This document shows, one piece after another, positions 27,080 through 56,763 of a stretch of 64,000 bases of DNA (position 1 is its first letter; the number at the start of each line of letters is the position of its first letter). The stretch covers positions 4,693 through 68,692 of the forward strand of contig CAYHBW010000001.1 of NCBI GenBank assembly GCA_964355085.1, given 5' to 3'. The notes beneath the pieces were generated by a model. The model ran no database searches, was not told the origin of the DNA, and saw only the letters and a program-made list of their open reading frames with translations. Source of the stretch: an uncultured Candidatus Saccharibacteria bacterium. Lineage in GTDB: Bacteria; Patescibacteriota; Minisyncoccia; UBA6257; 02-FULL-45-10c. The translations under genes and the position numbers were made by a program.

Positions 27080-27092
27080 GCTTTTCTTAAAT

Positions 27093-27836
27093 TTATTCCA
27101 ACCACTTGAAATCAGGGTCCGTATTCCATATATACACGCGCTCATTCCCAGCCAGCATCCACAGATAATACAACTCATGGCCGGGCGGATTGGCAACCGG
27201 ATGATATCCGCTCGGAATGAAAACACAATCCTTATCTTTGACGGCATAACATTGATCCGTCTTGCGGTCAGCTGAATATATCCGCTGGATGCCGAATCCC
27301 TTTTCCGGCCTGATTCTGAAAAAATAAATCTCCTCCAAAGGGACTTCCTTGCCGGGAACATATTCATCGTGCTTATGTGGCGGGAAAGATGACCAATTCC
27401 CCGGCAGATTGATTGTTTCGCCGACAGCTATCCGTTGCGTTTTTGTTTCAATATTCAGGATGTTGGAAACCTTCCTTTTATATCCCTCTTTTCCGCGCCA
27501 TTCTTCCTTCACATCAGCCGCCGGCACAAAAACCGGAACATTGTCCTCGTCCGCCCTGGCTTTGCAGACCGCCACCATGGTCGGAAGCGAAGCAGTAATG
27601 GAAACCGGACATTTCGGCGGAATATAAACAGCTGACGGAGGAGAGTCGAATACATTTTTTCGTTTCATTTCCACGGTTCCGATCCCGGACGCATCCAGGG
27701 AACAGCCGCCTTCTATGATCACAAAAACCGCCTCAAATTCATCGGAGATCCATGTCTTCTTTCCGCCGGCTTCCAGCTCCAGAAGTTCGAAGTCCAGAAT
27801 CGCCATCCGATTTTTTGTAAGCTCGTTTATTTTCAT
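27093..27836 (-). CDS. cupin-fold sugar isomerase, KduI/IolB-like (5-deoxy-glucuronate isomerase family)
   Basis: 247 aa. Double-cupin-like with a HKHDE...YYLWM block. Family assignment is tentative. Confidence 0.4.
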   Translation of the reverse strand: MKINELTKNRMAILDFELLELEAGGKKTWISDEFEAVFVIIEGGCSLDASGIGTVEMKRKNVFDSPPSAVYIPPKCPVSITASLPTMVAVCKARADEDNVPVFVPAADVKEEWRGKEGYKRKVSNILNIETKTQRIAVGETINLPGNWSSFPPHKHDEYVPGKEVPLEEIYFFRIRPEKGFGIQRIYSADRKTDQCYAVKDKDCVFIPSGYHPVANPPGHELYYLWMLAGNERVYIWNTDPDFKWLE

Positions 27837-28690: not shown

Positions 28691-29890
28691 CTAAAGATAA
28701 TCGCGTTTTACGAGATTTTCATATGCGTCAGCCAAAGATTCCTCCCGGCTGAAGCCCAATCCGGCTTTGGGAAACTTCCTGCCGATGCAATTCTTGGCGT
28801 TCTTTTTTATTGAAGTCAATATGGAGGCAAAAAGATTTGGGTTGCCATACGCGAAATATCTGTTCCATGCCTCAATCGTCAATGACTCTCCCAGCGCCAT
28901 ACTGATCATCCCGCCGACAAAATCTCCAGATCGCGCCGGCGTAGTATGGGAACTGTCCCAGCCGCCGGACAAACGAGGCGTGAGTTCCAAGATATACGGA
29001 CCGGTTTCAGTGAGCATGACATCCGCCTTCAGAATATGCCCTCCTTTTTGTTTATGCATGCCAATCGCTTTTCCTGAACGGTAGATCATTTCAGCCACTT
29101 CTTTTTTCAAACCGACGTCATGGATCGCCGGATTGATATGGCCTATCTCCACTCCCCAGCCGATTCCATGATACAGTTTCTTGCCGATTGCCCTCATATT
29201 TTTGAACTTTCCGAGATCTTTCCGGAATAAACGGTCGACCCAATTAAGCCAGTACATTTTCCCGTCATACCAAAGCGTCTCGACTGATTGTTCCGCTATT
29301 TCGCCATCAACCGGAATCAGGAGTTGTTCAACGATCGCCTGTCCAGTAGTTCCGTTCGCGAGAGCTTCTTCCAGCAATTCTTCCGTCGCCTCGCTTAACT
29401 TACTGATTGCGGCAAATCCCCGGCTTCCGGAATTATTGGTCGCCTTCAAAGCGACCGGCAATCCAATTTCCCTGATAGCCCGCTTCAATTCTTCAAGCGT
29501 CCGGACTGTCCGGAATTCCGGCTGTGGGATACCGGCGCGCGACAGGACTTTGCGGGTTTCCATCTTATACCGGCAGATTTTGGAAATCTTCGGATCAATG
29601 CCGGGCAAACCGAGACGCTTCGCCACGACAGCAACGGTTTCGTGGCAATCAACCGCAATACCCAGGACGCCTTTTATGTCATACTTTTTATTCAGCGCAT
29701 CAGCTGCCTTAAGATTTCCAGGAATATCAAAAGTATTCAAAGGCACGAATTCATCCGCGATGGCGGCGCAAACACACTCCGGATCCATATCGGTGATTAT
29801 CAACCTGAAACCGCGGATTTTTATTTTTTCAGCTGCGAGTTTCTGCATCGGTCCGCCGCCGAAAAGCCACATCGCTTTTTTCTTTTTCAT
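28691..29890 (-). CDS. ATP-grasp domain ligase
   Basis: 399 aa with a pre-ATP-grasp Rossmann-like N-terminus and a central ATP-grasp core (LPVALKATNNSGSRGF ... E..L.P). Stand-alone carboxylate-amine ligase-like. Confidence 0.65.
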   Translation of the reverse strand: MKKKKAMWLFGGGPMQKLAAEKIKIRGFRLIITDMDPECVCAAIADEFVPLNTFDIPGNLKAADALNKKYDIKGVLGIAVDCHETVAVVAKRLGLPGIDPKISKICRYKMETRKVLSRAGIPQPEFRTVRTLEELKRAIREIGLPVALKATNNSGSRGFAAISKLSEATEELLEEALANGTTGQAIVEQLLIPVDGEIAEQSVETLWYDGKMYWLNWVDRLFRKDLGKFKNMRAIGKKLYHGIGWGVEIGHINPAIHDVGLKKEVAEMIYRSGKAIGMHKQKGGHILKADVMLTETGPYILELTPRLSGGWDSSHTTPARSGDFVGGMISMALGESLTIEAWNRYFAYGNPNLFASILTSIKKNAKNCIGRKFPKAGLGFSREESLADAYENLVKRDYL

Positions 29891-33207: not shown

Positions 33208-34188
33208 TCAGCCGAGGATTTCTTTGGCTTTCCGCGGATTATTCAGAAAATCCCGGTGATTGCTGGCGTATTGGAATTGCTTTTTGACTGACGGCTTTTT
33301 ATTCAGCCAGCGCACGCTTCCGGATTCAGGATGGATGGCGAAAGCGCTCCCGATATCCTTGGCCCGGCGCGCTTCATGCTCGGTTATCAGCACTTCATGT
33401 AATTTTTCTCCCGGACGGATTCCGATGACTTCGACATCGCATTCCGGAGCCAGATATTTTATGACATCCGTAACTTTCAGGCTTTTCATCTTCGGCACGA
33501 AAAGCTCTCCGCCCTCCATGACGCCGACGGCGTCCAGAATTATATCCAGAACTTTATCTATGGAAATCCAGAAACGGGTCATCTCCTTGTCCGTCAACTT
33601 GATCACGCCTGTTTTTTTCTGATTATGAATAAGTTCGATCAGACTTCCGCGGCTTCCGATGACATTTCCATAACGCACGACGCTGAACTTGGTGCGTAAA
33701 TTATTTCCGACATATACATTGCCGGAAATAAACAATCTTTCCGCCGCAAGCTTGGTGGCGCCGTAAAGGTTTATCGGTTGAACCGCTTTGTCGGAAGAAA
33801 TAAGCATCACCTTGTCTATGTTCTTGTTCAAAGCCGCCTCAACGACATTCTGACTCCCTAAAATGTTCGTTTTGACAGCTTCCATCGGATTGAATTCAAT
33901 CGCCGGAACCTGCTTCAACGCCGCCGCATGGACGACGATATCCACTCCATCAAACGCCCTCTCCAAACGGGGCAAATCCCGGACATCGCCGATGAAAAAC
34001 CTCAATCGATCCTTATGATCGGCCAGATCTCTTTGCATTTCATACTGCTTGAATTCATCCCGGCTGAAAATTATGATTTTTTTGACCGCGCTTTCGCTTA
34101 AAAGTTTGGCAACAAAAGCCCGGCCGAAAGTCCCGGTGCCGCCGGTGACCAGAACCGTCTTGCCCTTGAGATAATTTAAGTTCGACAT
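33208..34188 (-). CDS. pseB: UDP-N-acetylglucosamine 4,6-dehydratase (inverting), PseB/FlaA1 family
   Basis: Aligns by eye nearly end-to-end with H. pylori FlaA1/PseB. Shared blocks: TVLVTGGTGTFG, KKIIIFSRDEFKQYEM, RFFIGDVRD, HAAALKQVP, KTNILGSQNV, INLYGATKL, FSVVRYGNVIGSRGS, MTRFWI, GGELFVPK, IGIRPGEKLHEV. Confidence 0.9.
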   Translation of the reverse strand: MSNLNYLKGKTVLVTGGTGTFGRAFVAKLLSESAVKKIIIFSRDEFKQYEMQRDLADHKDRLRFFIGDVRDLPRLERAFDGVDIVVHAAALKQVPAIEFNPMEAVKTNILGSQNVVEAALNKNIDKVMLISSDKAVQPINLYGATKLAAERLFISGNVYVGNNLRTKFSVVRYGNVIGSRGSLIELIHNQKKTGVIKLTDKEMTRFWISIDKVLDIILDAVGVMEGGELFVPKMKSLKVTDVIKYLAPECDVEVIGIRPGEKLHEVLITEHEARRAKDIGSAFAIHPESGSVRWLNKKPSVKKQFQYASNHRDFLNNPRKAKEILG

Positions 34189-34381
34189 AATGCTATTAAA
34201 ACTATCATATACCCTAAAGGGTTTCCAGATGTGTATTGAAAGACAGATATGAGATGCGGACTTGCATTCTAAATTCCACCGGATATTCTGCCGGATGACA
34301 AAATCAAGATTTCAAAAAATTGACGATAAAATTTTTGGCTTTAAATCTATCTTAATTTAAGATATTATTATACATGACACC

Positions 34382-34423
34382 ATGAAACTTTCCGATTATA
34401 TAATTGATTATATTACATTATGA
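34382..34423 (+). other. 13-codon upstream ORF (MKLSDYIIDYITL*) that duplicates the N-terminus of the downstream TPP-enzyme gene. Its TGA stop overlaps that gene's ATG (ATGA).
   Basis: atgaaactttccgattatataattgattatattacattatga is followed immediately, out of frame, by atgaaattatcagattatgttgctgattacatagcg (MKLSDYVADYIA...). Confidence 0.35.
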
Positions 34424-36228
34424 AATTATCAGATTATGTTGCTGATTACATAGCGAATTTAGGTACTAAAAAAGTCTTTTTAGTTACCGGCGGAGCATGC
34501 GTACATCTGGTCAATTCCATCAGCAAACATGAGAAACTTGGCTATGTCTGCATGCAACATGAGCAATCAGCGGCAATGGCGGCCGAGGCTTATTCCCGAG
34601 TCGGACCAGGAATCGGCGTCGCCGTGGCGACCAGCGGACCGGGTGCCACCAATTTCATAACCGGCATCTGCGGCGCCTGGTTTGATTCCATACCTACGCT
34701 ATTTATTACCGGAAATGTGAATATGCACGAGATGAAAGGCATGACAAAACTCCGTCAGGTCGGTTTTCAGGAAACTGATATTGTAAATATAGTTTCGTCC
34801 GTAACTAAATTTAGCCACACGGTGACTGATCCGGAAAAAATAAAATACTATCTCGATAAGGCGATCTTTATGGCAAATTCAGGAAGACCGGGTCCGGTAT
34901 TGCTGGATCTGCCGATGAATATCCAGCATGCGGAAATTGATCCTGAAAAACTTATCGGGTTTGTTCCTGATAAAAATACAGGGGATGAAAAGATCGGCGA
35001 TGAAAAAATGATAAAGAAAGCATTACAGTTGATCAAAAACGCCAGACGACCGGTAATTTTAGCCGGAGGAGGCATACGCATTTCCGAAGCCGCTGAAGAA
35101 TTCCGCGAATTTGTAAAATATCTGGGCTTCCCGGTAGTTTGCTCCTGGAGCGGAATTGATGTCCTGGGATATGATAATCCTCTCTTCATAGGACAAATCG
35201 GGGTTTATGGAAATCGCGGAGCAAATTTTCTGATTCAAAATGCGGACTTGGTAATTTCCATAGGGTCCCGCCTGGATACGCGACAAGTCAGCGGAAACGC
35301 AAAAAGTTTTGCACGCGCCGCAAAAAAAATTATAGTGGATATTGATGCGCAGCAACTGAAAGACGGCCGAGTACGTCCAGATATCGCAATTCATTCAGAT
35401 GTAAAGCAATTTTTACTGACAACCATGCCTCACCTCAAGAATTTAAAGAAGGAAGATATTGCCCCGTGGCTGACAAAAGCGCTCGAATGGAAAAGAAAAT
35501 ATCCGACCTGTCTTCCGGAGTACCGAAAGGAGAAGAAATTTGTTAACCCATATGTTTTTTTCAAGACCCTTTCCGAAGAACTCCGACCGGATGATATCAT
35601 CATTTCCGACATCGGAGGAGTTTTAGTCTGGGTTATGCAATCCCTCGAAATCAAAGAGGGGCAGAGATTATTCTCCTCAATGGGACATGCCGCGATGGGT
35701 TACGGCCTGCCGGCGGGAATCGGCGCCGCATTGGCTACAAAAAAATCCAGAATAATCTGCATTGTCGGCGACGGAGGAATGCAAATGAATATTCAGGAAT
35801 TGCAGACAATTTTTCATCATAAACTGCCTCTGAAGATTTTTATCGTCAATAATAATTGTTACGGGATAGTTCGCCAATACGAAGATTCGTATTTTAATGG
35901 CGAACATGAGGGTACTGTCCAGGACAGCGGGTACACAGCTCCTGATTTTGTCATGGTCGGAAAATCATACAAGATACCGTCATCACGCATTCTGAATCAT
36001 TCAAATATGCGATCTGAGATTCGAAGAGCTTTGGGAACAAAAGGCGCGGAAATAATCGATGTCATAGTGCGCGAAGATCAAAAATTAATCCCAAAACTTG
36101 AGGCAAAACGGATGAAAAACGGCCGCTACATCTCAAAGCCCATTGAGGATCAGTGGCCGTATCTTTCCAGAAAAGAGTTCACGGCCAATATGATAATTCC
36201 GCCAACCGATGAAATCGACGATGAATAA
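34420..36228 (+). CDS. thiamine-pyrophosphate-dependent acetolactate-synthase-like enzyme (YerE-like carboligase candidate)
   Basis: 602 aa with three-domain ALS/POX architecture: N-terminal Pyr domain (GGACVHLVNSI...EQSAAMAAEAY), central domain, and C-terminal TPP-binding GDGGMQMNIQEL...NNNCYG (GDG-x24-NN). Confidence 0.75.
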   Translation: MKLSDYVADYIANLGTKKVFLVTGGACVHLVNSISKHEKLGYVCMQHEQSAAMAAEAYSRVGPGIGVAVATSGPGATNFITGICGAWFDSIPTLFITGNVNMHEMKGMTKLRQVGFQETDIVNIVSSVTKFSHTVTDPEKIKYYLDKAIFMANSGRPGPVLLDLPMNIQHAEIDPEKLIGFVPDKNTGDEKIGDEKMIKKALQLIKNARRPVILAGGGIRISEAAEEFREFVKYLGFPVVCSWSGIDVLGYDNPLFIGQIGVYGNRGANFLIQNADLVISIGSRLDTRQVSGNAKSFARAAKKIIVDIDAQQLKDGRVRPDIAIHSDVKQFLLTTMPHLKNLKKEDIAPWLTKALEWKRKYPTCLPEYRKEKKFVNPYVFFKTLSEELRPDDIIISDIGGVLVWVMQSLEIKEGQRLFSSMGHAAMGYGLPAGIGAALATKKSRIICIVGDGGMQMNIQELQTIFHHKLPLKIFIVNNNCYGIVRQYEDSYFNGEHEGTVQDSGYTAPDFVMVGKSYKIPSSRILNHSNMRSEIRRALGTKGAEIIDVIVREDQKLIPKLEAKRMKNGRYISKPIEDQWPYLSRKEFTANMIIPPTDEIDDE

Positions 36229-37180
36229 TATATCTCAAATAATTGATGAAATGGATGGACCGATACTTATAACCGGCGCCAGCGGATTTATCGGCGCTAA
36301 TTTGGCTAGAAAAATTGCAAAGACGCGCGACGATGTTCATATAATAGTCAGGAACGGATCGAATCTCCGGCGCATTGAAGACATGCTTCCGCAAATCACG
36401 GTGCATCGCGCGGATCTTTCCGACCGCAATGATATCTTTCTGAAGATCGGAGAGATTCAGCCGAAAACAATTTTTCATGCGGCCGCTTATGGCGTCCACT
36501 CATTTCAAAATGAAACTGAAAAAATTGAGACTGCAAACCTCCACGGCACGATTAACTTATTGGATGCCTGCGTCAAATCCGGTTTCAAGATTTTTATCAA
36601 TACCGGATCTTCTTCAGAGTACGGCACAAAAAATAAGCCGATGAAAGAAACCGATCTTCTGACGCCTAACAGCGACTACGCGGTCTTTAAAGCGGCGGCG
36701 ACCCTTTACTGCCAGCACCTAGCGAGATCAAAAAAGATTCCGATCATAACGTTAAGGCCATTTTCGGTTTATGGCCAATTTGAAGAATCGACTAAATTGA
36801 TTCCGACGCTGATTAGATCATTTCTCGACGGCACATGTCCCCCGCTAGTGTCTCCTGATACGGCCAGAGACTACATTTTTATTGATGACTTAGTTGATGC
36901 CTATCTTATTGCCAGTCAAAAACCAGAATTAGGCGGAGAAATATTTAATGTCGGAAGCGGCAAGCAGACTACGCTGAAAGAAATAGTTGACTTATCAATC
37001 CGTTTGACTGGAGCTGCCGTTGAACCGGAATGGGGAACAATGAGTCCAAGGATCTGGGATCATAACATGTGGCAGGCGGACATATCAAAAATAAAATCAA
37101 TTCTAGATTGGTCGCCAAAAACTGATCTGAAGGAAGGACTGGCCAGGACAATTGACTGGATAGAATCCGACGGTAATTAA
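36209..37180 (+). CDS. NAD-dependent epimerase/dehydratase (extended SDR) acting on nucleotide sugars
   Basis: ILITGASGFIGANLARKI (GxxGxxG), catalytic YAVFKAA (YxxxK) and an S-x-x-Y pattern. 323 aa. Confidence 0.75.
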   Translation: MKSTMNNISQIIDEMDGPILITGASGFIGANLARKIAKTRDDVHIIVRNGSNLRRIEDMLPQITVHRADLSDRNDIFLKIGEIQPKTIFHAAAYGVHSFQNETEKIETANLHGTINLLDACVKSGFKIFINTGSSSEYGTKNKPMKETDLLTPNSDYAVFKAAATLYCQHLARSKKIPIITLRPFSVYGQFEESTKLIPTLIRSFLDGTCPPLVSPDTARDYIFIDDLVDAYLIASQKPELGGEIFNVGSGKQTTLKEIVDLSIRLTGAAVEPEWGTMSPRIWDHNMWQADISKIKSILDWSPKTDLKEGLARTIDWIESDGN

Positions 37181-37234
37181 TCCGATAATTCCAGATAAAT
37201 TTACAGTCGGACTTCAAATGCCACCGCTGCATAC

Positions 37235-37260
37235 AAAAATCTTAAAACCATAAGATTTTT
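37235..37260. terminator. weak AT-rich bidirectional hairpin between convergent genes
   Basis: aaaaatctta aaacca taagattttt is a 10-bp stem followed by a T-run. It overlaps the stop of the minus-strand gene at 37242. Confidence 0.35.
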
Positions 37261-37994
37261 TTGATCGCGCTTCTTATTTTTTCCAGAAATAAAAACTTGC
37301 GACTTTTATGAGTGTAAGTATACTCATCCCCTATCTCGCTGCCGAAAAACATCTTAAATTGCGCGACATTCGATTTTTGCGCAGTGGAATAATTGACTGA
37401 ACCCAGTCCGACATATTCATAATCGTTCTCTTTCCCATATTTACAGATTTCAAAAATCAGCCGCCTGGTCGCGGAACCGATGATCTTATACAGATCCTTG
37501 TTATCATCTCCGATGCTTAATCTTTTGGAAAATATGGCTCTCACCTGCAGATATGGATATAAATCATAACAAGGAACGGCGACAATCAGCTCCCCCTTAT
37601 AATAAGCATTGAAATTCATCAAGCCAGCGAGACTTTCTCGGCTCCATGGCTTACGTCCCTGCGCCAGCTCAAAGTCTCTATAAAGCGCGTAAGTGCCGTG
37701 AAAATCCGTATCGCCCACTGTAAATTTCAATTCAGTAATCTTGAAAGTTTTCATTATTTCCTGCTGCGTCCTTCGGGCAAACTTTGCGGTTATTTCCTCT
37801 AGGGATCCATTCAATCTTATATTCGCCAATTTTTTTTTGATCAGACCGAATCCTTGTTTCTCCAAGCCGAGATCCCGGTATGAGATTACCGTCATATAAT
37901 CGTATTTAGTTTTATCCAATAGTTCTCCTAAGTCCTCGTTCTGATGCAGAACCCTAATCGAATTAAGAAAAAATTTTCTTTTTTTATAGATCAT
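37242..37994 (-). CDS. hypothetical protein, possibly a GNAT-fold (FemAB/Acetyltransf_6-like) acyltransferase
   Basis: 250 aa with no strong motif. Overlaps by 4 nt the stop of the upstream GT4-MT fusion gene. Confidence 0.3.
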   Translation of the reverse strand: MIYKKRKFFLNSIRVLHQNEDLGELLDKTKYDYMTVISYRDLGLEKQGFGLIKKKLANIRLNGSLEEITAKFARRTQQEIMKTFKITELKFTVGDTDFHGTYALYRDFELAQGRKPWSRESLAGLMNFNAYYKGELIVAVPCYDLYPYLQVRAIFSKRLSIGDDNKDLYKIIGSATRRLIFEICKYGKENDYEYVGLGSVNYSTAQKSNVAQFKMFFGSEIGDEYTYTHKSRKFLFLEKIRSAIKKILWF

Positions 37995-39832
37995 TTTTGC
38001 GCTATATAAATAGGAAATTTATCAAGAAAAGCCAGGAGAAAATCCGGCGCATTCAGAATCCTCCGGCTATTTCCGATCATGCGGATATTCCTGAATCCTG
38101 CCGCTGAAAGGCCGCGCTTCTCGCTCCAGACATTATTATAATACTGCATAAGCTGCCCGAATTCATATTCCTCCTTCCGCCAATGGGCGCCCAACCTTAA
38201 TCTGACTAAATTGTTCAATAAAATCTTCCAGCCGGTCGGCGTCCTCGGCACAGCCAAAGAATTATGACTGGAGTAAATGAAAAATCCTCCCGGCCGGAGA
38301 ACTCTTTTTATTTCGCTCATCGCCCTCCTTCTCTCGGATAAAGAGGCCAAATTATCTATGCCGTTAAATGAAAAAAATACCGCGTCAAACGAGCCGTCTT
38401 TGAAGCCCAGTTTTCTCGCATCCATGACCCGGAAATCGATTCCCGGAAAATTCTTCCTCGCCTGGTCGACAAGCGGACCGGAGATATCCACGCCGACCAC
38501 GTCGCAGCCCTTCTCATGTATGAAGGTGGTCGTCCGGCCGGCGCCGCAGCCGAGATCCAGGATATCGGAGCCGGACGGCATATATTCCCTGATGACATGC
38601 TCTTCCCCGGCCCGCAGATATTTTTTAGAATACTCCCTGACCGATGACGGGGAAGAGAATGATTCGATGTTCATGCGCTCGATATCATCCGATTTTGACG
38701 CTCCGCCGAAAAAATCCGCAATCTTTCCAGCTCGTTTCCGCCATGTATGCTCATGCGCGTCATTCAGTGCCTGATCGGATATATTTTTTGAAAAATTTCC
38801 GTCGCCGATAACCTTCAAAATCGCCCTGCCGAGCTCATCCGAGCTCCCGGGAGAAACAAGGACTGAATTGAAAGAATTAAGGATTTCTTTCAGAGAAGGC
38901 AATGCCGTGGAGATGATCGGTCTACCGGAAGCCATATACTCGAAAATCTTAAGCGGCGACATATAGAAACTGTAATGCTCGTTCTCCGGAAACGGGGCTA
39001 TCAGGACATCGAAGGATTTCAGATATTTCGGAATCAGGTCGTGCCTGACCATGCCGGTGAAAATTACGGCGTCTCCGATGCCGGAGCTCTTCGCGATGCT
39101 TCTGTAATGATCGATATCCTCCGGATGTCCGCCGACAAGAACAAGGACGATTTCTTTCTCCGCTTTTAATCCGGAGAACGCCTTGAGAGCGACATCTATT
39201 CCCTTTTCCATCCCGAGCGTCCTAAGCATGCCGACATATCCGACCAATTTTTTATCATGAGGAAGCCCGAGTTCCGTCCTTGCGTCTTCCTTGGAAACAT
39301 CAATATTGAATTTTTCAAGATTGACGGCGTCAGGCGCGACAATTATTTTCCCCGCGCTCACTCCGGATTTGACCATTCTTTCCTTTATGAACGAAGTGAG
39401 AACGACCACGGCATCCGCGTTCTTTAAAGCCCGCAGATAGAATCCTCCGTAATTCTTCGGCAGGGAATGTATCTCCAGGACAGCCATCCGAAAAAGAAGC
39501 CCGACCGAGGACTCACGCGAATAGATGAAATCGTATCTTTTGAAAAGAAGATACAGCCTGGCAACGGCCAGAAATGTCGCCAACTGGAGAAGAAATGTGA
39601 ATCTGTTGCCGCGCTGATGCAGAAAATCGATGCATGGCAGCTTGGTTATTTTGAACTTTCTTTCCACTCCGTAATAATCGAACGGATCCTGATCCGGACT
39701 GCCGGAACGCATCGGGGAAACCAATTCGACGTCAAAACCGCTTTCGGAAAAAGCGGCGCACATCTGCATTATCTGCAGACCATGCGCGGAACTCGCCGGA
39801 AGTTTTGAATTGGAGACATAGACCAGCTTCAT
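37991..39832 (-). CDS. bifunctional fusion: N-terminal GT4 glycosyltransferase (Glycos_transf_1) plus C-terminal class I SAM methyltransferase
   Basis: 613 aa. Residues 1 to about 380 carry GT4 features (VGYVGMLRTLGMEKGIDVALKAF, GRPIISTALPSLKEIL). Residues from about 400 to 613 form a SAM-MT (ILDLGCGAGRTTTFIHEKGCDVVGVDIS motif I, FDAVFFSF, LRPGGFFI). Confidence 0.75.
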   Translation of the reverse strand: MKLVYVSNSKLPASSAHGLQIMQMCAAFSESGFDVELVSPMRSGSPDQDPFDYYGVERKFKITKLPCIDFLHQRGNRFTFLLQLATFLAVARLYLLFKRYDFIYSRESSVGLLFRMAVLEIHSLPKNYGGFYLRALKNADAVVVLTSFIKERMVKSGVSAGKIIVAPDAVNLEKFNIDVSKEDARTELGLPHDKKLVGYVGMLRTLGMEKGIDVALKAFSGLKAEKEIVLVLVGGHPEDIDHYRSIAKSSGIGDAVIFTGMVRHDLIPKYLKSFDVLIAPFPENEHYSFYMSPLKIFEYMASGRPIISTALPSLKEILNSFNSVLVSPGSSDELGRAILKVIGDGNFSKNISDQALNDAHEHTWRKRAGKIADFFGGASKSDDIERMNIESFSSPSSVREYSKKYLRAGEEHVIREYMPSGSDILDLGCGAGRTTTFIHEKGCDVVGVDISGPLVDQARKNFPGIDFRVMDARKLGFKDGSFDAVFFSFNGIDNLASLSERRRAMSEIKRVLRPGGFFIYSSHNSLAVPRTPTGWKILLNNLVRLRLGAHWRKEEYEFGQLMQYYNNVWSEKRGLSAAGFRNIRMIGNSRRILNAPDFLLAFLDKFPIYIAQK

Positions 39833-39836
39833 TATT

Positions 39837-41600
39837 CTATTTAACTGTTTTAAAAATCAAATGGTTTTCAATTTCAACCGATAAGATAAGAAAATCTGAA
39901 GTTCTGAATTCATCCGAAAGATACCCGAATTCCGGATCATCCCTGTCCAAAAGGACATAATCCGCCCCATACTGCGCCAAAGATTTCTCAAACCCGAGAT
40001 TTCTGTAAAAATCCATCTTCCAAAAAACTCTGTCGATATATTCCTGCGGAATAAACTCCGGATCTTCCGACTGTTTGCCGCTTAAAATATCCAAAAGCTT
40101 ATTTCTGACAATCTGGTTCTGATATTTCTCTATGAATTTATTAGCCCAGATTTCAACATTGTGTTCTTTAATATATCCGGCATCGATGTTCTTCCTTAAA
40201 ATATTCTGTATCGCCCATCGGTTCTCAAGTTCGTCGTCCGAAATCATGTAGAGTCCGGAATTCGGATTATAGAAATCATTATTATGAGTGTATATCGGAA
40301 TGAGCTGGATATAATTACCGCCGAGCGAATAAACGACTGAATCCTTTTCCGAATTCGCATTCAGCCATTCCGAGACTCCGGAAAAATCCTGAACTCTGCG
40401 GAATTCCCCGATATCCAGGGGCTCCGCAAACGACAGGATTCCGGAGATGCTGTCTCTCTCCCGATAAGAAATTATTCCCATAACAGCGGTCATCAGGAGA
40501 ATCGCCGCAATCCGACGCGGCCTGATTCCGCCGGAAACATGCGCGACATTCAAAAACCCGGAACAAATCGCAAAAATAATAAATACGAACAGGACCACGA
40601 CCCAATAATAATGCATTGAGAAAGAGAATGCCTTGCCAGTAATGACATTCTGCCAGTTGAGGATTATTCCGCTGAACGCGAGAACAAAAGCGAACACTCC
40701 CCGCCTGCCCGTACCGATACCGGACATCAACAGAACCGCCAATGACAAGAACATAAGCGCGACATTAAAATACGCGTGCGGCCAATGAGTGGAAAGAAAG
40801 CCGAAACGCAGATTCTGATCCAGATAACTGACATCAGCCGCCGCCCTCTGCAGATTCAGGATATACGGAGCCGAAAATAGTCCGGCCGGAACGGCGAACG
40901 CCAGGAAATTTCCGGCATAATATCTGACTCCCTCGGTCCGCAGATAAGCGAGCGCCGCGGCAAACAGGCAATAAACCACAAGAATCGACGACCAGACGAA
41001 AGGATAGATATAAAAAGCGATTCCAAAATCAATTGCAAGGAGGATATTCAGCCGGACATATTCCTTCAAGCTCCTCGTTCCCTCTCCGAATATCTTCCAA
41101 ATCAAAAAAAGACCGAGAAAAAGAAATATGAAGCTGAATTGCGGATTTACCGGTCTATTGAACCAATAATTCAGCACGAAGTAATAACCGGAGGAAAAAA
41201 TCAAAGCCGCGGATCCGGAACCGGATACCGCAAATATCAGAAAATAAAGGGCTGTAACGCCGACGGCCGGCAATACGAAATCATTAAGCGCGAACAATGC
41301 CGGAATTGAAATACGGGAAATACGGGCCATCTCCGCCATGATTATCTCCGCCAGCGGCTGCTGAAGATATGGGGCGCCCTTATGCTCCTTGAGATAAACA
41401 CTGCCGAAATTATAATGTCCGTCGTATGCTTCACGGGTCATCGAAAGATACTGGTCTTCATCATTGTTGAACATCGGATAAATTCCCTTGAAATCAGGGT
41501 TTATCTGCCGGATTGCGGAAACTGTCGGAGCGACGATCAACAAACCTACGGCGAAAGCGGCCGGAATAATCCTCCAATGCGTTCTGAATATGGACATCAT
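39837..41600 (-). CDS. polytopic integral membrane protein of unknown function (possible glycan polymerase or GT-C-like)
   Basis: 587 aa with at least 10 predicted TM helices and an approximately 190-aa C-terminal soluble domain. No family recognised. Confidence 0.4.
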   Translation of the reverse strand: MMSIFRTHWRIIPAAFAVGLLIVAPTVSAIRQINPDFKGIYPMFNNDEDQYLSMTREAYDGHYNFGSVYLKEHKGAPYLQQPLAEIIMAEMARISRISIPALFALNDFVLPAVGVTALYFLIFAVSGSGSAALIFSSGYYFVLNYWFNRPVNPQFSFIFLFLGLFLIWKIFGEGTRSLKEYVRLNILLAIDFGIAFYIYPFVWSSILVVYCLFAAALAYLRTEGVRYYAGNFLAFAVPAGLFSAPYILNLQRAAADVSYLDQNLRFGFLSTHWPHAYFNVALMFLSLAVLLMSGIGTGRRGVFAFVLAFSGIILNWQNVITGKAFSFSMHYYWVVVLFVFIIFAICSGFLNVAHVSGGIRPRRIAAILLMTAVMGIISYRERDSISGILSFAEPLDIGEFRRVQDFSGVSEWLNANSEKDSVVYSLGGNYIQLIPIYTHNNDFYNPNSGLYMISDDELENRWAIQNILRKNIDAGYIKEHNVEIWANKFIEKYQNQIVRNKLLDILSGKQSEDPEFIPQEYIDRVFWKMDFYRNLGFEKSLAQYGADYVLLDRDDPEFGYLSDEFRTSDFLILSVEIENHLIFKTVK

Positions 41601-41604
41601 GGAC

Positions 41605-42348
41605 TTATTTTAACAGAAAAACCCGCCTCCGTAACCAAAGATAGGAATTGCTCAATTTAAGCGTAAATTTGAACAGAGAGGTATCGGAATATATGTCGAT
41701 CCGATTATCCGGAATACGAGCCCCTTTGCTCCGTAAAAAAGACTTCACCTTTTCATTCTTAGCGCCTTTCGGGAAAACAAATATATTGGGAAATCCGTTA
41801 TTTTTGAAATTATTCCTTATGAAATTCGAGGTTACCTCGTATTCATAAAGGACATCCGCCTCGGCCAGCTCTGACAATTGCCTGTGCGAATGGCCGTGAT
41901 TTGCGATTGCAACGCCGCCGGCTTCGAGCGCATGCAAATCGGAAAGCGAGCATATCTCCCTTTCCCTATCGATCGGACGCGTTGAAAATTCCGCCTTTTT
42001 CCCGATCAGACCGTCATTTATGAAAATAGTCGCCGGAAATCCATGACTCCGTAAAACAGGCAGGGCGTTCCGATAAACGTCTCTAAATGCATCGTCAAAG
42101 GTTATCAGAACCGACTTCCCGGCAGATGGGATCTTACCGGATTCGATATCCAGAAAATCCCGCAACGTCAGAACTTTTATGCGTCTGGATTTCAGAAAAT
42201 CCATCTGCCTTCGGAATTCCTCCGTACGCACGGAAATAGGGGTCTCGCCGTCGGAGACGGAATGATATGTAAGTACGACTGGATAACGGAAAAACATGGC
42301 GTCTATTCCGGATAAAATCTGATTGATTGATTTTAAGAAATAGATCAT
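41605..42348 (-). CDS. polysaccharide deacetylase (NodB homology, CE4)
   Basis: LTYHSVSD...ITFDDAFRDVYRNALPVLRSHGFPATIFI...ANHGHSHRQLSEL gives the NodB motifs (TFDD, H-x-x-H). Confidence 0.8.
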   Translation of the reverse strand: MIYFLKSINQILSGIDAMFFRYPVVLTYHSVSDGETPISVRTEEFRRQMDFLKSRRIKVLTLRDFLDIESGKIPSAGKSVLITFDDAFRDVYRNALPVLRSHGFPATIFINDGLIGKKAEFSTRPIDREREICSLSDLHALEAGGVAIANHGHSHRQLSELAEADVLYEYEVTSNFIRNNFKNNGFPNIFVFPKGAKNEKVKSFLRSKGARIPDNRIDIYSDTSLFKFTLKLSNSYLWLRRRVFLLK

Positions 42349-42470
42349 TTGTTTAGGCAGCTGATTTTATTGAAAAATGAAACAATAAATCGCTTGCATT
42401 AGTTACATTATTGCATGAAAACAAGTTCGCACAAAAGATAACGGACGAGAAAATAAATTAAAATAAGAAA

Positions 42471-43508
42471 ATGAAAAAAATTCTTAGCATCGTCATTCCA
42501 ACCTATAACAGGGTCAACTTTCTAAAAACGAATGTCGAATTATTAATCAATCAGATTAAAACCGCAAAGCTTGAAAATATTGTTGAAGTGATAATCTCGA
42601 ATGACGCGTCGAAAGATGAGACAGCCGATTTCATAAATCATATAAACAAATCGTATGATTTCCTTCGCGGATTCAATCATATAAAAAATAAAGGCTTTTC
42701 GAAAAACGTCGAATTTCTAATTAGTAAATCAGTCGGAGAATATGTATTGATTTGCGGAGATGACGACCTGATTATCGATAAAGCCATCACCCGCATACTC
42801 GATAAGATAAAGAAAAAAAAGCCGAATTTCATATTGATCAACACATCGAATATAATATCAATCGATGACGCTAATAAAAATATCCGAACCGTTTCAGAAA
42901 ACCGATTAAATATCGACAAAGATATATTTGTTGAAGATTTTAAAAAAGATTCCAAAATTCTTGATTCGGCGAGGAACTGGCTTTATCTTACTAACTTCAT
43001 AACAGCAAATGTATTTAAAAAGGATATTTTTATATCCAAGGAAATTGATGCGAGAAAATTCGTGCGGAAAGAAAACGCATATGCATTCCAAGCCCCAATA
43101 ATCATCGGGATTGCCACTCTTGGGAGATTCCTGATAATTTCGGACTGCCTCGTTCTGCATCGCAAGACTGAGCCGAATTGGACGGCGGATTACCAGGGGA
43201 TTTTCGTCATAGACATACTTGATAGCACGGAGATATCCAAATTAATAAAAAATTATATTCCAAATGAATATAAAAAATATAAAAAACTCTACGCGGCCTT
43301 CATTCTTGATGATTTCATACTTGAAATTAAAAGGCGGAAGGATAAATTGAGCATACGAAAGTTCGCCTCGATAGCATTTTATAAAAATATAGACTGCTTT
43401 CCGGAAAATATTAAATTTTTACTTGTAGCGATCGCACCGAAAATTTCCGCATACATAGCAACAAAAATTCGGGCGAATAGGATTAAATCAAGTGGAAAAA
43501 CCTTCTAG
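42471..43508 (+). CDS. GT2 family glycosyltransferase (GT-A fold)
   Basis: LSIVIPTYNRVNFL...ISNDASKDET...ICGDDDLI has the GT2 N-terminal motifs and a DxD. Confidence 0.75.
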   Translation: MKKILSIVIPTYNRVNFLKTNVELLINQIKTAKLENIVEVIISNDASKDETADFINHINKSYDFLRGFNHIKNKGFSKNVEFLISKSVGEYVLICGDDDLIIDKAITRILDKIKKKKPNFILINTSNIISIDDANKNIRTVSENRLNIDKDIFVEDFKKDSKILDSARNWLYLTNFITANVFKKDIFISKEIDARKFVRKENAYAFQAPIIIGIATLGRFLIISDCLVLHRKTEPNWTADYQGIFVIDILDSTEISKLIKNYIPNEYKKYKKLYAAFILDDFILEIKRRKDKLSIRKFASIAFYKNIDCFPENIKFLLVAIAPKISAYIATKIRANRIKSSGKTF

Positions 43509-43581
43509 TATGAAATTTGCTAGGTTCGCACGTTTTTGTTAATATAATCAAAATAATTCACATATAAATTAACAACAAATT

Positions 43582-44811
43582 ATGAAAATGGAAAACAAGA
43601 GAAGGGTCTTGTATGCCGAAGCTGTTTATGGCCAATCAGAAATTGACGCAGTCGTTAAAGTTCTTAAAAATCCTAAAAAGATCGGCGCCGGAGAATTAGT
43701 TGGGGAATTCGAGAATAAAATATCTCGACTATTCGGAAAGAAATATGGCGTTATGGTCAATTCGGGATCCTCCGCCAATCTTATCGCCTTGGAAGCCCTT
43801 AATCTTCCAAGAGGTTCCGAGATAATAACTCCTATCCTCACATTCGGAACAACGTTGAGCCCCATAATCCAAAAAGGGCTGATTCCTGTATTTGTTGACG
43901 TAAAACCAGGAACATACATAATAGATCCGGATAAAATTGAGCCCATGATAACGAAGAAGACAAGGGCCCTGATGATTCCGTCCTTGATGGGAAATATTCC
44001 GGACCTGATTAAGCTCAAAAAAATAGCCGACAAATACGATCTCTGGATAATTGAAGACTCCTGCGACACGCTTGGTGCAAAATTCGCCGGAAAACCGACC
44101 GGTCAATATACGGACATATCAGTCACAAGTTTCTACGCGTCACACATCATAACAGCCGCCGGAGGAGGAGGGATGGCCTGCTTTAATGATAAAAATATGG
44201 CCAGGAGAGCCCGGGTGATATCGAGCTGGGGAAGAGAATCGACCAATTTCGGATTTCACGAAAAGTCCGAGAATCTGGATAAAAGATTCTCCGGAAGAAT
44301 TGAAGGTCGTGTCTACGATGCCAAATTCATCTTCAGTGAGGTCGGATATAATTTCCAGGTTCCTGAAATGTTCGGCGCCTTCGGACTTGAGCAACTTAAA
44401 AAATTTCCGAAGTTCGCGCAACGACGCAAGAAAAATTTTAAGGAAATGCTTTCGTTTTTCAAAAAATATGATAGATATTTCATTTTGCCGAAACAAACAG
44501 ATAAATCAGAAACAAATTGGCTTGCATTTCCTTTAACGATTAAGCCGGGTGCGGGTTTTTCCAGACATGAAATAACAAAATATCTTGAAGAAAACGGAAT
44601 ACAGACAAGACCGGTGTTCACCGGAAATGCGCTAAAGCAGCCGGCTTTCAAAAATCTGATAAGAGGGGGGGCAAGAAAAATGAGCTGTCCAGTGGCAGAC
44701 GATGTGACCCTGAATGGATTTGTGATCGGTTGCCATCACGGGCTCAAAAAGCCTGATACTTCCTACGTCAAAAGAAAATTCGAGCAATTCCTCGGCGAAT
44801 ATGCCGAATAA
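43582..44811 (+). CDS. DegT-family PLP/PMP enzyme, RfbH/DdhC (E1 dehydrase)-like
   Basis: 409 aa. The N-terminus VLYAEAVYGQSEIDAVVKVLKNPKKIGAGELVGEFENKI...VNSGSSANLIALEAL resembles RfbH-type CDP-6-deoxy-4-keto-hexose 3-dehydrases. Also SFYASHIITAAGGGGMA. Confidence 0.6.
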   Translation: MKMENKRRVLYAEAVYGQSEIDAVVKVLKNPKKIGAGELVGEFENKISRLFGKKYGVMVNSGSSANLIALEALNLPRGSEIITPILTFGTTLSPIIQKGLIPVFVDVKPGTYIIDPDKIEPMITKKTRALMIPSLMGNIPDLIKLKKIADKYDLWIIEDSCDTLGAKFAGKPTGQYTDISVTSFYASHIITAAGGGGMACFNDKNMARRARVISSWGRESTNFGFHEKSENLDKRFSGRIEGRVYDAKFIFSEVGYNFQVPEMFGAFGLEQLKKFPKFAQRRKKNFKEMLSFFKKYDRYFILPKQTDKSETNWLAFPLTIKPGAGFSRHEITKYLEENGIQTRPVFTGNALKQPAFKNLIRGGARKMSCPVADDVTLNGFVIGCHHGLKKPDTSYVKRKFEQFLGEYAE

Positions 44812-44851
44812 TTTCCGGAGCGTCCATAGGACGTATTTTGAAGAAATATAA

Positions 44852-45340
44852 TTATTTTGAATTTCTATAAAACTTTTTCAGCAATCTTATTTCCGGAATC
44901 TGCGTTTTCAAAAATTTCCTTGGTAACTTATCGATATTGAAATATTTCCCGTCAATCGGAAGACTTGCTGGTCTCGCGGAAAATAAAAGACTGATGCCGT
45001 ATTCCCTTATATCCCGATACTCGTAATAACCGACAAAATTTATTTTGGCTATCTTGATGCCAAGCTCTTCCTTAGCGACAAGTTTTAATCTAGAAATCAC
45101 ATTGTCATTGTTGCGCAAAATCATTCCTGGGATATGCCAATTATCATAAAATTCATCTTTTCGATAGGTAAGCAATATATTTCGGTCATCCTTTATGACA
45201 GCAAGATCGATGGCGATCATCGGAACCGCCTTGCACATAGCCACAAAAACCGGATATGGCAATGGCCAACGAACTCTTGAAAGAAGGCGCGCTAATAATG
45301 ATATCTCACCTTCAGTCAAAACGCGGTATTTTGGGGACAT
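44852..45340 (-). CDS. NUDIX-like hydrolase (GDP-mannose mannosyl hydrolase / WcaH-like candidate)
   Basis: 162 aa with a degenerate Nudix-box-like segment (ILRNNDNVISRLKLVAKEELGIKI). Size and glycan-locus context fit Gmm/WcaH. Weak. Confidence 0.35.
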   Translation of the reverse strand: MSPKYRVLTEGEISLLARLLSRVRWPLPYPVFVAMCKAVPMIAIDLAVIKDDRNILLTYRKDEFYDNWHIPGMILRNNDNVISRLKLVAKEELGIKIAKINFVGYYEYRDIREYGISLLFSARPASLPIDGKYFNIDKLPRKFLKTQIPEIRLLKKFYRNSK

Positions 45341-45503
45341 AAAATGATACTGATTTGAAACTTATTTATAAATTTATAGGTTATATTATTACATAAAAAA
45401 TAGGCGATGCCAATCAAATTATTAGGGAGTATGCTTTAAGGGATTAACTGAAAATTCACAAAACACGGATAACATTTAGAACATCGTAAATAATCAAAAA
45501 ACT

Positions 45504-47009
45504 ATGAAAGGTTGCATAGTTCTACAAAGGCGCTTCGCCCCAATCGGGCATGCAATCGCGTTGGAACTTAAAAATAAATATGAAGTAAATGAGTTCTGCG
45601 GTTATGTGATTGCCAGGAATGCGGAGTATTTTGCAAAATCCAGAAAAGACATAGTTTATACAGACCTTCTGATGGATGAGGACCTGCGTAACCGATCTAA
45701 AAACGAAAAGCTAGACATCGAATACCTAAAAAGGATTGAATCCGAATATGGCTTCCCAAATCTTTGGCCGTTTATAGCCATAGACAGAACTCTCATGATG
45801 GATATCCCAAGAAAAGAATATTCCATCTCCCCTGCTCCGCCATATACCCATGAAGAAATGCTTAAAATCCTGCAAATCAAATTCCGGGAAATAATAAAAT
45901 TTCTTAAAAAAGAAAGGCCCGATTTCATAATCGGTGTAAATGTCGGTTCAATCGGCGCAATGATTCTTTATTATGTCGCAAAAAAAGAAGGAATTAAATT
46001 TTATACTGCTGAAAATGCAAAAATCGGCAATCGTATAACTTTCAGCGACGATTATAAGACATTATCCGGAATGGAAAATATATTTACTGACATCCGGAAA
46101 CGAAATTACGAAAGCCCGAACCGCAAAGAGGCGGAAAGATTTTTGAAAAGATTCCGGGATAATCCGGAGCCTCCCGCCTTTGCAATTGAAGAAAAAGAAA
46201 ATGGCCGGTGGGAAAAAATCGCCTCATTGCCTTTAAAATTTTTGAGATCTTTGTCTTTCACTATAAAATCTGTAATCCTATATGCGAAAAACCCGCGCAA
46301 AGAAGACATGACGACAGAAAATCCATTTTTTCTTTTCAGAAATAAGCTTATAAGAAAAATACGGGGATTAAGGAATCTCCAGGCCCTTTATGACGCAGTG
46401 GACCTGAAAGAGGATTTTGCTTATTTCCCATTGCACTTTGAGCCGGAAATCACCACTCTGCTCTATGCCCCATTTTACACCGACCAGATCAATCTTATCC
46501 GGCAAATCGCAAAATCCTTGCCAATACATTTCAAAATATACGTTAAAGAGCATCCTTCAATGCTCGAATATCGCCCAACTGAATATTATCGGGAACTTAA
46601 GAAAATTCCTAATTTGAAGCTGATAAATCCCAAACAGAGCTCGCTGGACCTGATTAAAAATTCAAAAATGATCGTTACGATTTCCGGAACTGCGGGGTTC
46701 GAAGCATCACTTCTCAAGAAGCCCGTCATCACTTTCGGTGACATATTTTATAACTGCCTTTCATTCGTGAAAAAATGCGGACCCATCGAAGAACTGCCGA
46801 ATCTTGTGAAAAAACAATTGGAAAATTTCCAATATGACGAAAAAGAAATGGTTGATTTCCTTTCCGCGCTTTTCGAAGACACGACTGCGCTTGATCTTTC
46901 CAATGCCTGGGGAAGCGGAGATGGAAATCAATTGGAAGCCATGGTGAAACAACCGGAATTCCATAAATTTGTGGCTTCCCTGGCGCATAAACTTAATCTG
47001 AAAAATTAA
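45504..47009 (+). CDS. capsule polysaccharide biosynthesis protein, KpsS/KpsC/LpsZ-like (Capsule_synth family; Kdo / nonulosonic-acid transferase candidate)
   Basis: 501 aa. The C-terminal block KEHPSMLEY...MIVTISGTAGFEASLLKKPVITFGDIFYN matches the conserved HP...SSvG(f/l)EAll.gkPV...G..fY core of KpsS/KpsC-type transferases. Confidence 0.45.
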   Translation: MKGCIVLQRRFAPIGHAIALELKNKYEVNEFCGYVIARNAEYFAKSRKDIVYTDLLMDEDLRNRSKNEKLDIEYLKRIESEYGFPNLWPFIAIDRTLMMDIPRKEYSISPAPPYTHEEMLKILQIKFREIIKFLKKERPDFIIGVNVGSIGAMILYYVAKKEGIKFYTAENAKIGNRITFSDDYKTLSGMENIFTDIRKRNYESPNRKEAERFLKRFRDNPEPPAFAIEEKENGRWEKIASLPLKFLRSLSFTIKSVILYAKNPRKEDMTTENPFFLFRNKLIRKIRGLRNLQALYDAVDLKEDFAYFPLHFEPEITTLLYAPFYTDQINLIRQIAKSLPIHFKIYVKEHPSMLEYRPTEYYRELKKIPNLKLINPKQSSLDLIKNSKMIVTISGTAGFEASLLKKPVITFGDIFYNCLSFVKKCGPIEELPNLVKKQLENFQYDEKEMVDFLSALFEDTTALDLSNAWGSGDGNQLEAMVKQPEFHKFVASLAHKLNLKN

Positions 47010-56015: not shown

Positions 56016-56024
56016 TGTTCCGGA

Positions 56025-56720: not shown

Positions 56721-56763
56721 TCATAGATTATATCAAAAAAATAAGTTATATTACAATGACATT

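Follow-up and report, generated by a model that had tools for sequence, protein, structure and literature searches.

The 64,000-nucleotide stretch of an uncultured Candidatus Saccharibacteria genome analysed here (contig CAYHBW010000001.1; hereafter the window, to which coordinates refer unless another locus is named) encodes, within a glycan locus, a thiamine diphosphate (ThDP)-dependent carboligase of the YerE-like/JanthE-like class and a relative of the sugar 3-dehydratase E1 that lacks an iron-sulfur (Fe-S) cluster motif, and the probable product of this locus is a carbon-branched deoxysugar, formed by a modified version of the known yersiniose pathway. We see about an even chance that a C-branched deoxysugar module is encoded in the window and follows the logic of yersiniose synthesis with different parts. 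A sequence-only reading of the same DNA had proposed a yersiniose-like pathway, and that interpretation is partly supported: the analogy is reasonable for the chemistry, but it does not extend to the identity of the sugar, to the carboligase, which is a distant relative of YerE, or to the adjacent reductase-like protein, which is not YerF. The locus represents a variant form of known YerE-like systems for sugar branching, and not yersiniose synthesis itself. The open reading frames (ORFs) on which that proposal rested, for the ThDP enzyme, a short-chain dehydrogenase/reductase (SDR) and a DegT-family protein, were all confirmed in the ORF map.

The carboligase gene (34420-36228, forward strand) encodes 602 residues spanning the three TPP-enzyme Pfam domains (N, M and C). 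The cofactor motif GDGGMQMNIQELQTIFHHKLPLKIFIVNNN, of the class pattern GDG-X(24-27)-NN, is readable in its translation, and E48, the catalytic glutamate of the HEQ motif, is invariant among 26 family members. Judged by its sequence, this is a YerE/JanthE-type enzyme and not an acetolactate (acetohydroxyacid) synthase (AHAS), because the ranking of solved structures and the phylogeny, together with one active-site residue, the form of the C-terminal tail and the lack of ilvN and ilvC in the window, all point in that direction, and here the sequence-only reading holds. Among PDB entries the protein scores highest against JanthE (8rph, 385 bits), followed by PpYerE (5ahk, 350 bits), plant AHAS (about 292 bits) and Escherichia coli AHAS I (255 bits). 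The AHAS equivalog model TIGR00118 scores 424 against a cut-off of 538, and every AHAS equivalog model falls far under its cut-off. In a neighbour-joining tree of 91 sequences (100 bootstraps, unrooted, with no outgroup), the split between AHAS and non-AHAS proteins was recovered in 100/100 bootstraps, as was a single clade uniting the window enzyme with JanthE and the Patescibacteria homologs; PpYerE and Yersinia YerE form a separate neighbour of this JanthE clade with 53% support. We read from this tree only that the window enzyme lies outside AHAS and inside the JanthE clade.

Two features of the alignment agree with that placement. Of 67 AHAS proteins, 61 have the tryptophan of the AHAS motif VRQW, which none of 24 non-AHAS proteins shares and which is a tyrosine in the window protein; and a C-terminal tail of the form P(K/R)L...PIED..P, which reads PKLEAKR...PIEDQWP in the window, is common to the window enzyme, JanthE and YerE and is not found in AHAS. 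Absence of the tryptophan and presence of the tail, as criteria for the YerE-like class, were derived from this alignment and not from a published definition. Within the tail, Lys559 is invariant in the 26 family members and is equivalent to K567 of JanthE, a residue which lines the active-site cleft and influences tertiary-alcohol formation (PMC12188165). Neither ilvN nor ilvC was found in the window by ORF map or by Pfam/NCBIfam annotation; most AHAS loci do have genes of ilvN and ilvC size downstream. Over its full length the enzyme is 36% identical to YerE of Yersinia vastinensis. We propose, on these features, that it is the C-branching enzyme of the locus and would act on a keto sugar.

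The 409-residue product of 43582-44811 (forward strand) has a DegT fold (Pfam) and is predicted to be an E1-related, Fe-S-free 3-dehydratase of nucleoside diphosphate (NDP)-4-keto-6-deoxyhexoses, dependent on pyridoxamine or pyridoxal phosphate (PMP/PLP), which we refer to as type B. Among NCBIfam models it matches RfbH best, scoring 341.5 bits where the cut-off is 423 and Yersinia DdhC reaches 744.5, and its best PDB matches are E1 (3bcx, 247 bits) and ColD (174 bits). His188, in the motif SFYASH, aligns with His220 of E1 and with the lysine of the E1 H220K entry 3bb8, and is invariant in seven aligned proteins. Because this histidine occupies the position of the PLP-binding lysine, an ordinary aminotransferase is ruled out, in agreement with the sequence-only reading. 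The protein is not E1 in the narrow sense, however: of the four cysteines in the [2Fe-2S] motif C-X57-C-X1-C-X7-C, three are missing and only the first (EDSCD) is kept. The Cys-less region of the window protein reads WGRESTNFGFHEKSENLDKRF, and the same region of Yersinia DdhC, with its C-x-C-x7-C, reads WGRDCYCAPGCDDTCG. The protein is also about 30 residues shorter than E1 at its N terminus, and a tblastn search of the 64-kb window with Yersinia DdhD found no match for the partner reductase E3 (DdhD/AscD), a gene for which might still lie in another part of the genome. With neither the cluster nor E3 in the window, the electron-transfer mechanism of E1 and E3 is therefore not available to this dehydratase. 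For a His-type enzyme an alternative is known: in ColD, an amino acid serves to restore PMP, and the enamine product undergoes hydrolysis. By analogy, the E1-related dehydratase probably works as ColD does, a route that we presume because the catalytic histidine is present and both the Fe-S cluster and the E3 partner are absent.

Each of these genes has a close companion. An extended SDR of 323 residues (36209-37180, forward strand; Pfam Epimerase/GDP_Man_Dehyd) is translationally coupled to the carboligase gene: depending on the choice of ATG, the two genes overlap by 20 or 8 nt, or the SDR begins 22 nt past the carboligase stop codon. The SDR carries the motifs GSSSEYG and YxxxK, and shows no TDE, TDK or TSE dehydratase residues, the glutamate of S-S-S-E-Y-G standing one position out of register. 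Relatives at 35-38% identity occur near type-B dehydratases in related loci (denoted here by L and a number), adjoining them in L169 and L170 and sharing a gene block with them in L008 and L173, and each of these four loci has a separate bona fide 4,6-dehydratase besides the SDR. Because the window SDR lacks 4,6-dehydratase residues, and its family keeps company with both the type-B dehydratase and a separate 4,6-dehydratase, we assign it as a putative reductase or epimerase of the dehydratase pathway, and propose that it acts as an NAD(P)H-dependent ketoreductase or epimerase. Two other identities were rejected: a YerF ortholog, given a BLASTP score of 26 bits against Yersinia YerF and membership of another extended-SDR family; and the missing 4,6-dehydratase, on catalytic residues and on the co-occurrence of the family with true dehydratases.

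Directly after the dehydratase gene lies an ORF on the reverse strand for a divergent NUDIX-fold protein of 162 residues (44852-45340). A Gmm/WcaH-like NUDIX protein had been reported from this DNA, and a NUDIX-like ORF is indeed present, just beyond the region then described; the Gmm/WcaH identity was set aside, in view of weak matches (GDP-mannose mannosyl hydrolase in NCBIfam at E=2e-4, Pfam NUDIX at E=0.06) and a degenerate Nudix box. In that box (GX6D...LVAKEELGI) the first Glu is replaced by Asp and the Arg by Leu; homologs in L001, L172 and L171 keep both residues, and the L170 protein only the Glu, such that the window protein may be catalytically impaired. Homologs adjoin E1-like or ThDP enzyme genes in L001 (52% identical, annotated PF00293), L172 and L171, and a NUDIX protein occupies the same position in L170, with no BLAST match to the window protein and 24% identity in alignment A3. 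From this pattern, the NUDIX protein appears to be a conserved companion of the type-B dehydratase. The coupling of carboligase to SDR, the association of the SDR family with the dehydratase, and the pairing of dehydratase with NUDIX protein together form a chain which is our main argument that both gene pairs belong together.

The association extends to related genomes. Peptide-pattern scans of genome and metagenome collections yielded at least 160 loci, and since the patterns are shared with AHAS, most of those listed are AHAS loci and serve as a negative control. Across the 165 ThDP enzyme loci compared among the matches listed, with dehydratases counted within the retrieved flanks, a His-type dehydratase lies near 21 of the 67 genes whose products lack the AHAS tryptophan and near none of the 98 AHAS-type genes (Fisher p = 7e-10). 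The co-occurrence of the two families, which the sequence-only reading had noted in this one locus, is thus not due to chance. Further, among the matches listed, the type of dehydratase follows the type of carboligase: the dehydratase is Cys-free in 8/8 loci with a window-clade ThDP enzyme (L001, L003, L008, L089, L091, L171, L172 and L173), and the 13 dehydratases with the Cys motif of classical E1 accompany ThDP enzymes of the YerE clade or more distant YerE-like proteins, which are 34-43% identical to the window enzyme or are Yersinia YerE itself. Gene orders within these loci are varied. L001 has a contiguous series of ThDP enzyme, PgfS-like GT2 glycosyltransferase, short SDR, NUDIX protein and E1-like dehydratase; in L003 and L172 the E1-like dehydratase gene lies directly upstream of the carboligase gene, and in L171 the two are divergent neighbours. 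L008 and L173 share the order 4,6-dehydratase, SDR320 (of the window SDR's family), GT2, ThDP enzyme, class-I aminotransferase and E1-like dehydratase; in L173 the 4,6-dehydratase is DdhB-like with an SSDK motif, and the gene for a DdhA-like nucleotidyltransferase precedes the block by about 3 kb. In L089 and L091 the order is DdhA-like, DdhB-like, E1-like dehydratase and ThDP enzyme. The canonical yersiniose locus is represented by L023 of Yersinia vastinensis, where the genes ddhD-ddhA-ddhB-ddhC-yerE-yerF encode, in that order, E3, glucose-1-phosphate cytidylyltransferase, CDP-glucose 4,6-dehydratase, RfbH (744 bits), YerE and YerF.

Other genes recur around the carboligases of these related loci. 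A class-I, aspartate aminotransferase (AspAT)-like protein of about 390 residues, 39-88% identical between loci and not encoded in the window, adjoins window-clade ThDP enzyme genes (L003 14655-15851; L008 4677-5864; L173 11797-12984; L087 from 1877; L099 from 1687; L011 10-768), and its role might be to provide the 2-oxo-acid donor or to aminate the branch. A second extended-SDR family, UXS/ArnA-like and with the motif S[ST][SG]E.YG, also recurs nearby (L001 17616-18680; L003 13454-14554; L011 2660-3682; L012 5294-6343; L171 1560-2612), which hints that some window-clade enzymes may branch a UDP-4-keto-pentose and not a hexose. Genes for B12-binding radical SAM proteins repeatedly flank the module in Patescibacteria loci (L001 19448-21722; L171 1-523 and 12767-14254; L173 4428-6155), with none in the window. 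L170, which has a Cys-free dehydratase and no acetolactate synthase (ALS)-like ThDP enzyme, encodes a transketolase/DXS-like ThDP enzyme of 635 residues (17083-18990) beside NeuB and a short SDR, and this may be an alternative branching enzyme.

What we observe are the protein families, the His and Cys residues of the dehydratase, the linkage of the genes and what is missing from the window; from these we infer the following route, together with its substrate, the nucleotide that carries it, the acyl donor, the sequence of steps and the exact reaction of the SDR. An NDP-4-keto-6-deoxyhexose would be provided by a nucleotidyltransferase and a 4,6-dehydratase encoded beyond the window, or by the adjacent PseB. 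The dehydratase would then take off the C3 hydroxyl, PLP being converted to PMP by an amino-acid donor and water eliminated, and hydrolysis of the enamine, presumably by the logic of ColD, would yield a 3-deoxy-4-keto sugar. The ThDP enzyme would decarboxylate a 2-oxo acid and add the resulting acyl anion to the C4 ketone, giving a branched tertiary alcohol; the co-translated SDR would reduce the remaining ketone; and glycosyltransferases of the locus would attach the product to a surface glycan, of which a pseudaminic-acid-type sugar is a further component. As to the first step, tblastn of the window with reference proteins from related loci found, in 64 kb, no glucose-1-phosphate cytidylyltransferase or other sugar-1-phosphate nucleotidyltransferase, no CDP-glucose or RmlB-type 4,6-dehydratase nor any other 4,6-dehydratase besides PseB, and no RmlC-like gene, which bears out the earlier remark that the first two genes of the CDP route are missing; neither ColC nor a mannose-1-phosphate guanylyltransferase was seen in the Pfam/NCBIfam annotation of the window. 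PseB, the inverting UDP-GlcNAc 4,6-dehydratase (33208-34188, reverse strand; TIGR03589 at 409.5 bits, cut-off 407.75), is the sole 4,6-dehydratase detected in the window and the divergent neighbour of the carboligase gene, with an intergenic region of about 230 bp between them, and is thus a candidate source of the 4-keto-6-deoxy sugar. A more specific scheme, in which an Fe-S-free, E3-independent descendant of E1 feeds a JanthE-clade carboligase in the Candidate Phyla Radiation (CPR)/Patescibacteria, from a PseB-derived substrate and towards a C4-acyl-branched 2-acetamido-2,3,6-trideoxyhexose, we regard as unlikely to hold in full. To our knowledge no such sugar has been described and, if true, the PseB-fed scheme would be the first physiological context for the JanthE clade.

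Several observations weigh against a single pathway drawn from both gene pairs. The nearest relatives of the dehydratase (65-67% identical, in L169 and L170) lie in loci without an ALS-like ThDP enzyme, in the order reductase, dehydratase, RmlB-like gene (STDE), NUDIX gene (L170 only) and RmlC-like gene, and by gene content these loci look like ascarylose-like pathways to an unbranched 3,6-dideoxyhexose; the dehydratases that adjoin ThDP enzyme genes are only 35-50% identical to that of the window. A carboligase homolog in L007 (62%) adjoins NeuB, with no dehydratase in 13 kb. In the window itself, the carboligase-SDR and dehydratase-NUDIX pairs stand about 6 kb apart with an oppositely oriented four-gene block between them, no nucleotidyltransferase or dedicated 4,6-dehydratase was found by tblastn, the SDR is unrelated to YerF, and ColD-like chemistry for a cluster-less E1-type protein is a proposal by analogy. 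One might accordingly suppose two independent pathways, in which the dehydratase, NUDIX protein and SDR make an unbranched 3,6-dideoxyhexose and the ThDP enzyme branches another keto sugar that is not 3-deoxygenated, either the UDP-4-keto-6-deoxy-N-acetylhexosamine produced by PseB or a UDP-4-keto-pentose. We find this somewhat unlikely. It would account for the company of the closest dehydratase relatives, with their RmlB-like and RmlC-like genes, for the intergenic region shared by PseB and the carboligase gene, for the UXS/ArnA-like SDRs beside window-clade carboligases (L001, L003, L011, L012, L171), and for NeuB, whose gene adjoins that of the carboligase in L007 and precedes it by two genes in L001. 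However, the SDR coupled to the carboligase is of the dehydratase-accompanying family and not of the UXS-like family, the RmlB-like and RmlC-like genes that an unbranched pathway needs were not found in the window by tblastn, and the dehydratase adjoins or shares a block with the carboligase in eight window-clade loci among the matches listed.

The setting of the carboligase gene suggests another role, namely that the enzyme makes an alpha-hydroxy-ketone (acyloin) block which decorates the neighbouring pseudaminic-acid-type sugar, with no branching of a ring. PseB, PseC, a NeuB/PseI-like gene, a CMP-sugar synthetase, an ATP-grasp protein, a FemAB-like protein and methyltransferases do surround the gene, and NeuB occurs within 10 kb of the ThDP enzyme in four distinct loci of close homologs (L001, L003, L007 and L009), but proximity to NeuB is weak evidence because glycan loci are large. 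We judge this role improbable given that YerE and ErwE have been assigned ring-ketone sugar acceptors (PMC12247030, PMC12188165), and that the statistical association given above is with the 3-dehydratase. Least credible of all, and in our view very improbable, is the chance presence in a glycan locus of an ordinary acetolactate/acetohydroxyacid synthase and an ordinary DegT sugar aminotransferase: the top NCBIfam names (acetolactate synthase, and RfbH- or PseC-type transaminases) would suggest as much, but the equivalog scores, the exclusion from the AHAS clade in 100/100 bootstraps, the missing AHAS tryptophan, the lack of a small subunit or ilvC in the window, and a histidine in place of lysine at the Schiff-base position of the DegT protein are all opposed to it.

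The surroundings are those of a single, very large glycan locus, which by Pfam/NCBIfam annotation begins at about 8.6 kb and takes up the greater part of the window. Its assembly and export genes comprise an initiating sugar transferase, a flippase, a Wzy_C-TPR protein and an ABC exporter; its many glycosyltransferases are of families GT4 and GT2, with GtrB-like GT2 proteins paired with PMT_2-type membrane transferases; the pseudaminic-acid-type set consists of PseB, PseC (502.7 against a cut-off of 423.5 bits), the NeuB/PseI-like gene and the CMP-sugar synthetase; and the modification genes encode ATP-grasp and FemAB-like proteins and several methyltransferases. A GT2 glycosyltransferase of 345 residues (42471-43508, forward strand; Pfam Glycos_transf_2) has the same orientation as the dehydratase gene, lies 73 nt upstream of it, and probably shares an operon with it. 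The intervening block (37242-42348, reverse strand), delineated by Pfam and a hydropathy scan, encodes a 250-residue protein, a 613-residue GT4-methyltransferase fusion, a 587-residue multi-pass membrane protein and a polysaccharide deacetylase. All four belong to the same locus and serve glycan assembly or modification, with no sugar-nucleotide enzymes among them; the 250- and 587-residue ORFs have no significant Pfam match. In the fusion protein (37991-39832), GT4 (residues about 20-370) is joined to a class-I SAM methyltransferase (about 410-570). A promoter and terminator scan of 33900-45700 was uninformative in this AT-rich DNA, with terminator-like sites at no more than chance level.

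Further from the carboligase, three small GtrB-like GT2 genes alternate with three genes for PMT_2/ArnT-like membrane glycosyltransferases (53843-60533), an interleaving which suggests that several sugars are attached outside the membrane from polyprenyl-phosphate carriers. The FemAB-like protein and ATP-grasp ligase (17321-18418 and 28691-29890) sit among the Pse genes, and their placement suggests that the nonulosonic acid bears an amino-acid or peptide substituent. Within 26384-27836, a KduD-like short-chain dehydrogenase has a long ORF that is overlapped by the gene for a KduI/IolB-family cupin (27093-27836), a pairing unusual within a glycan locus; the Pfam match of the KduD-like ORF begins only at residue 151, and its start is probably mis-called. 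At the edge of the locus, 531-5273 encodes a 1580-residue protein with Lamin Tail Domain repeats, which probably resides on the cell surface and could be a target of glycosylation.

The closest homologs of both the carboligase and the dehydratase come from Patescibacteria/CPR metagenome bins, and a glycosyltransferase identical to one of the window is present on Hainich groundwater contigs; the source is thus probably a CPR bacterium of groundwater. The locus indicates that Patescibacteria, for all their genome reduction, devote genes to elaborate surface glycans, here with a branched deoxysugar and a nonulosonic acid combined. C-branched sugars from YerE-like enzymes are rare components of surface glycans, and the enzymes are wanted as biocatalysts for chiral tertiary alcohols. 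The systematic pairing of JanthE-type carboligases with an Fe-S-free, E3-less relative of E1, where the YerE clade keeps classical E1, suggests a possible simpler and oxygen-tolerant two-enzyme route to 3-deoxy-4-keto sugar acceptors, and offers a testable class of natural substrates for JanthE-like enzymes.

The YerE-like subclass is itself established, with physiological or proposed roles in the synthesis of yersiniose, erwiniose, caryophyllose and gastriose (PMC12247030), and a 2024 survey, as described in PMC12247030, predicted more than 200 YerE-like clusters. The view that YerE is the only ALS-like enzyme of sugar metabolism, on which the sequence-only reading had leaned, is thus out of date, as ErwE, MMAR_2332, MygE and JanthE also belong here (PMC12247030). 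Ring-ketone sugars are assigned as the acceptors of YerE and ErwE, and for the others the natural acceptor is an inferred one; JanthE, a characterized YerE-like enzyme that joins acyl anions derived from 2-oxo acids to ketones, has natural substrates that are unknown (PMC12188165, PMC12247030). With YerE of Yersinia pseudotuberculosis and the solved PpYerE (5ahk) the window enzyme shares the ThDP/ALS fold, the GDG...NN motif, Phe or Tyr for the AHAS tryptophan and the P(K/R)L...PI(E/N) tail, but at 36% identity to a Yersinia YerE it belongs instead to the clade of JanthE from Janthinobacterium sp. HH01 (8rph/8rpi/8rpj). JanthE is its closest solved relative, alike in its long tail and in the lysine described above, and differs in having an unusual CDG motif where the window enzyme has the canonical GDG.

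Compared with the yersiniose A pathway (ddhDABC-yerE-yerF), the locus retains linkage of the carboligase to a His-type 3-dehydratase and an extended SDR, but the dehydratase is without an Fe-S cluster, E3, DdhA and DdhB are not encoded in the window, and the SDR is not YerF. E1 (DdhC/RfbH/AscC, CDP-6-deoxy-L-threo-D-glycero-4-hexulose 3-dehydrase; 3bcx) remains the top structural relative of the dehydratase, with the same DegT fold and His for Lys, and differs by its [2Fe-2S] cysteines, its E3 partner, its longer N terminus and its RfbH score. ColD (GDP-4-keto-6-deoxy-D-mannose 3-dehydratase; 2gms/3gr9) matches the window protein in its catalytic histidine and in having neither metal cluster nor reductase partner, but is less similar to it than E1 is, and the companions expected from its pathway differ too, as no Gmd-like or RmlB-like 4,6-dehydratase was found in the window by tblastn and no ColC or guanylyltransferase was annotated there. 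Ascarylose-type pathways (4,6-dehydratase, 3-dehydratase, 5-epimerase and 4-reductase) resemble the gene sets which L169 and L170 hold around their closely related dehydratases, including an SDR of the window's family; the window, without RmlB-like and RmlC-like genes, has instead a ThDP carboligase coupled to its SDR gene. The general idea of YerE-like branching is therefore already known, and what appears to distinguish the present locus is the JanthE-type clade of its carboligase, the consistent partnership of that clade with a cluster-less, E3-less dehydratase, a CPR host, and a pseudaminic-acid pathway next door.

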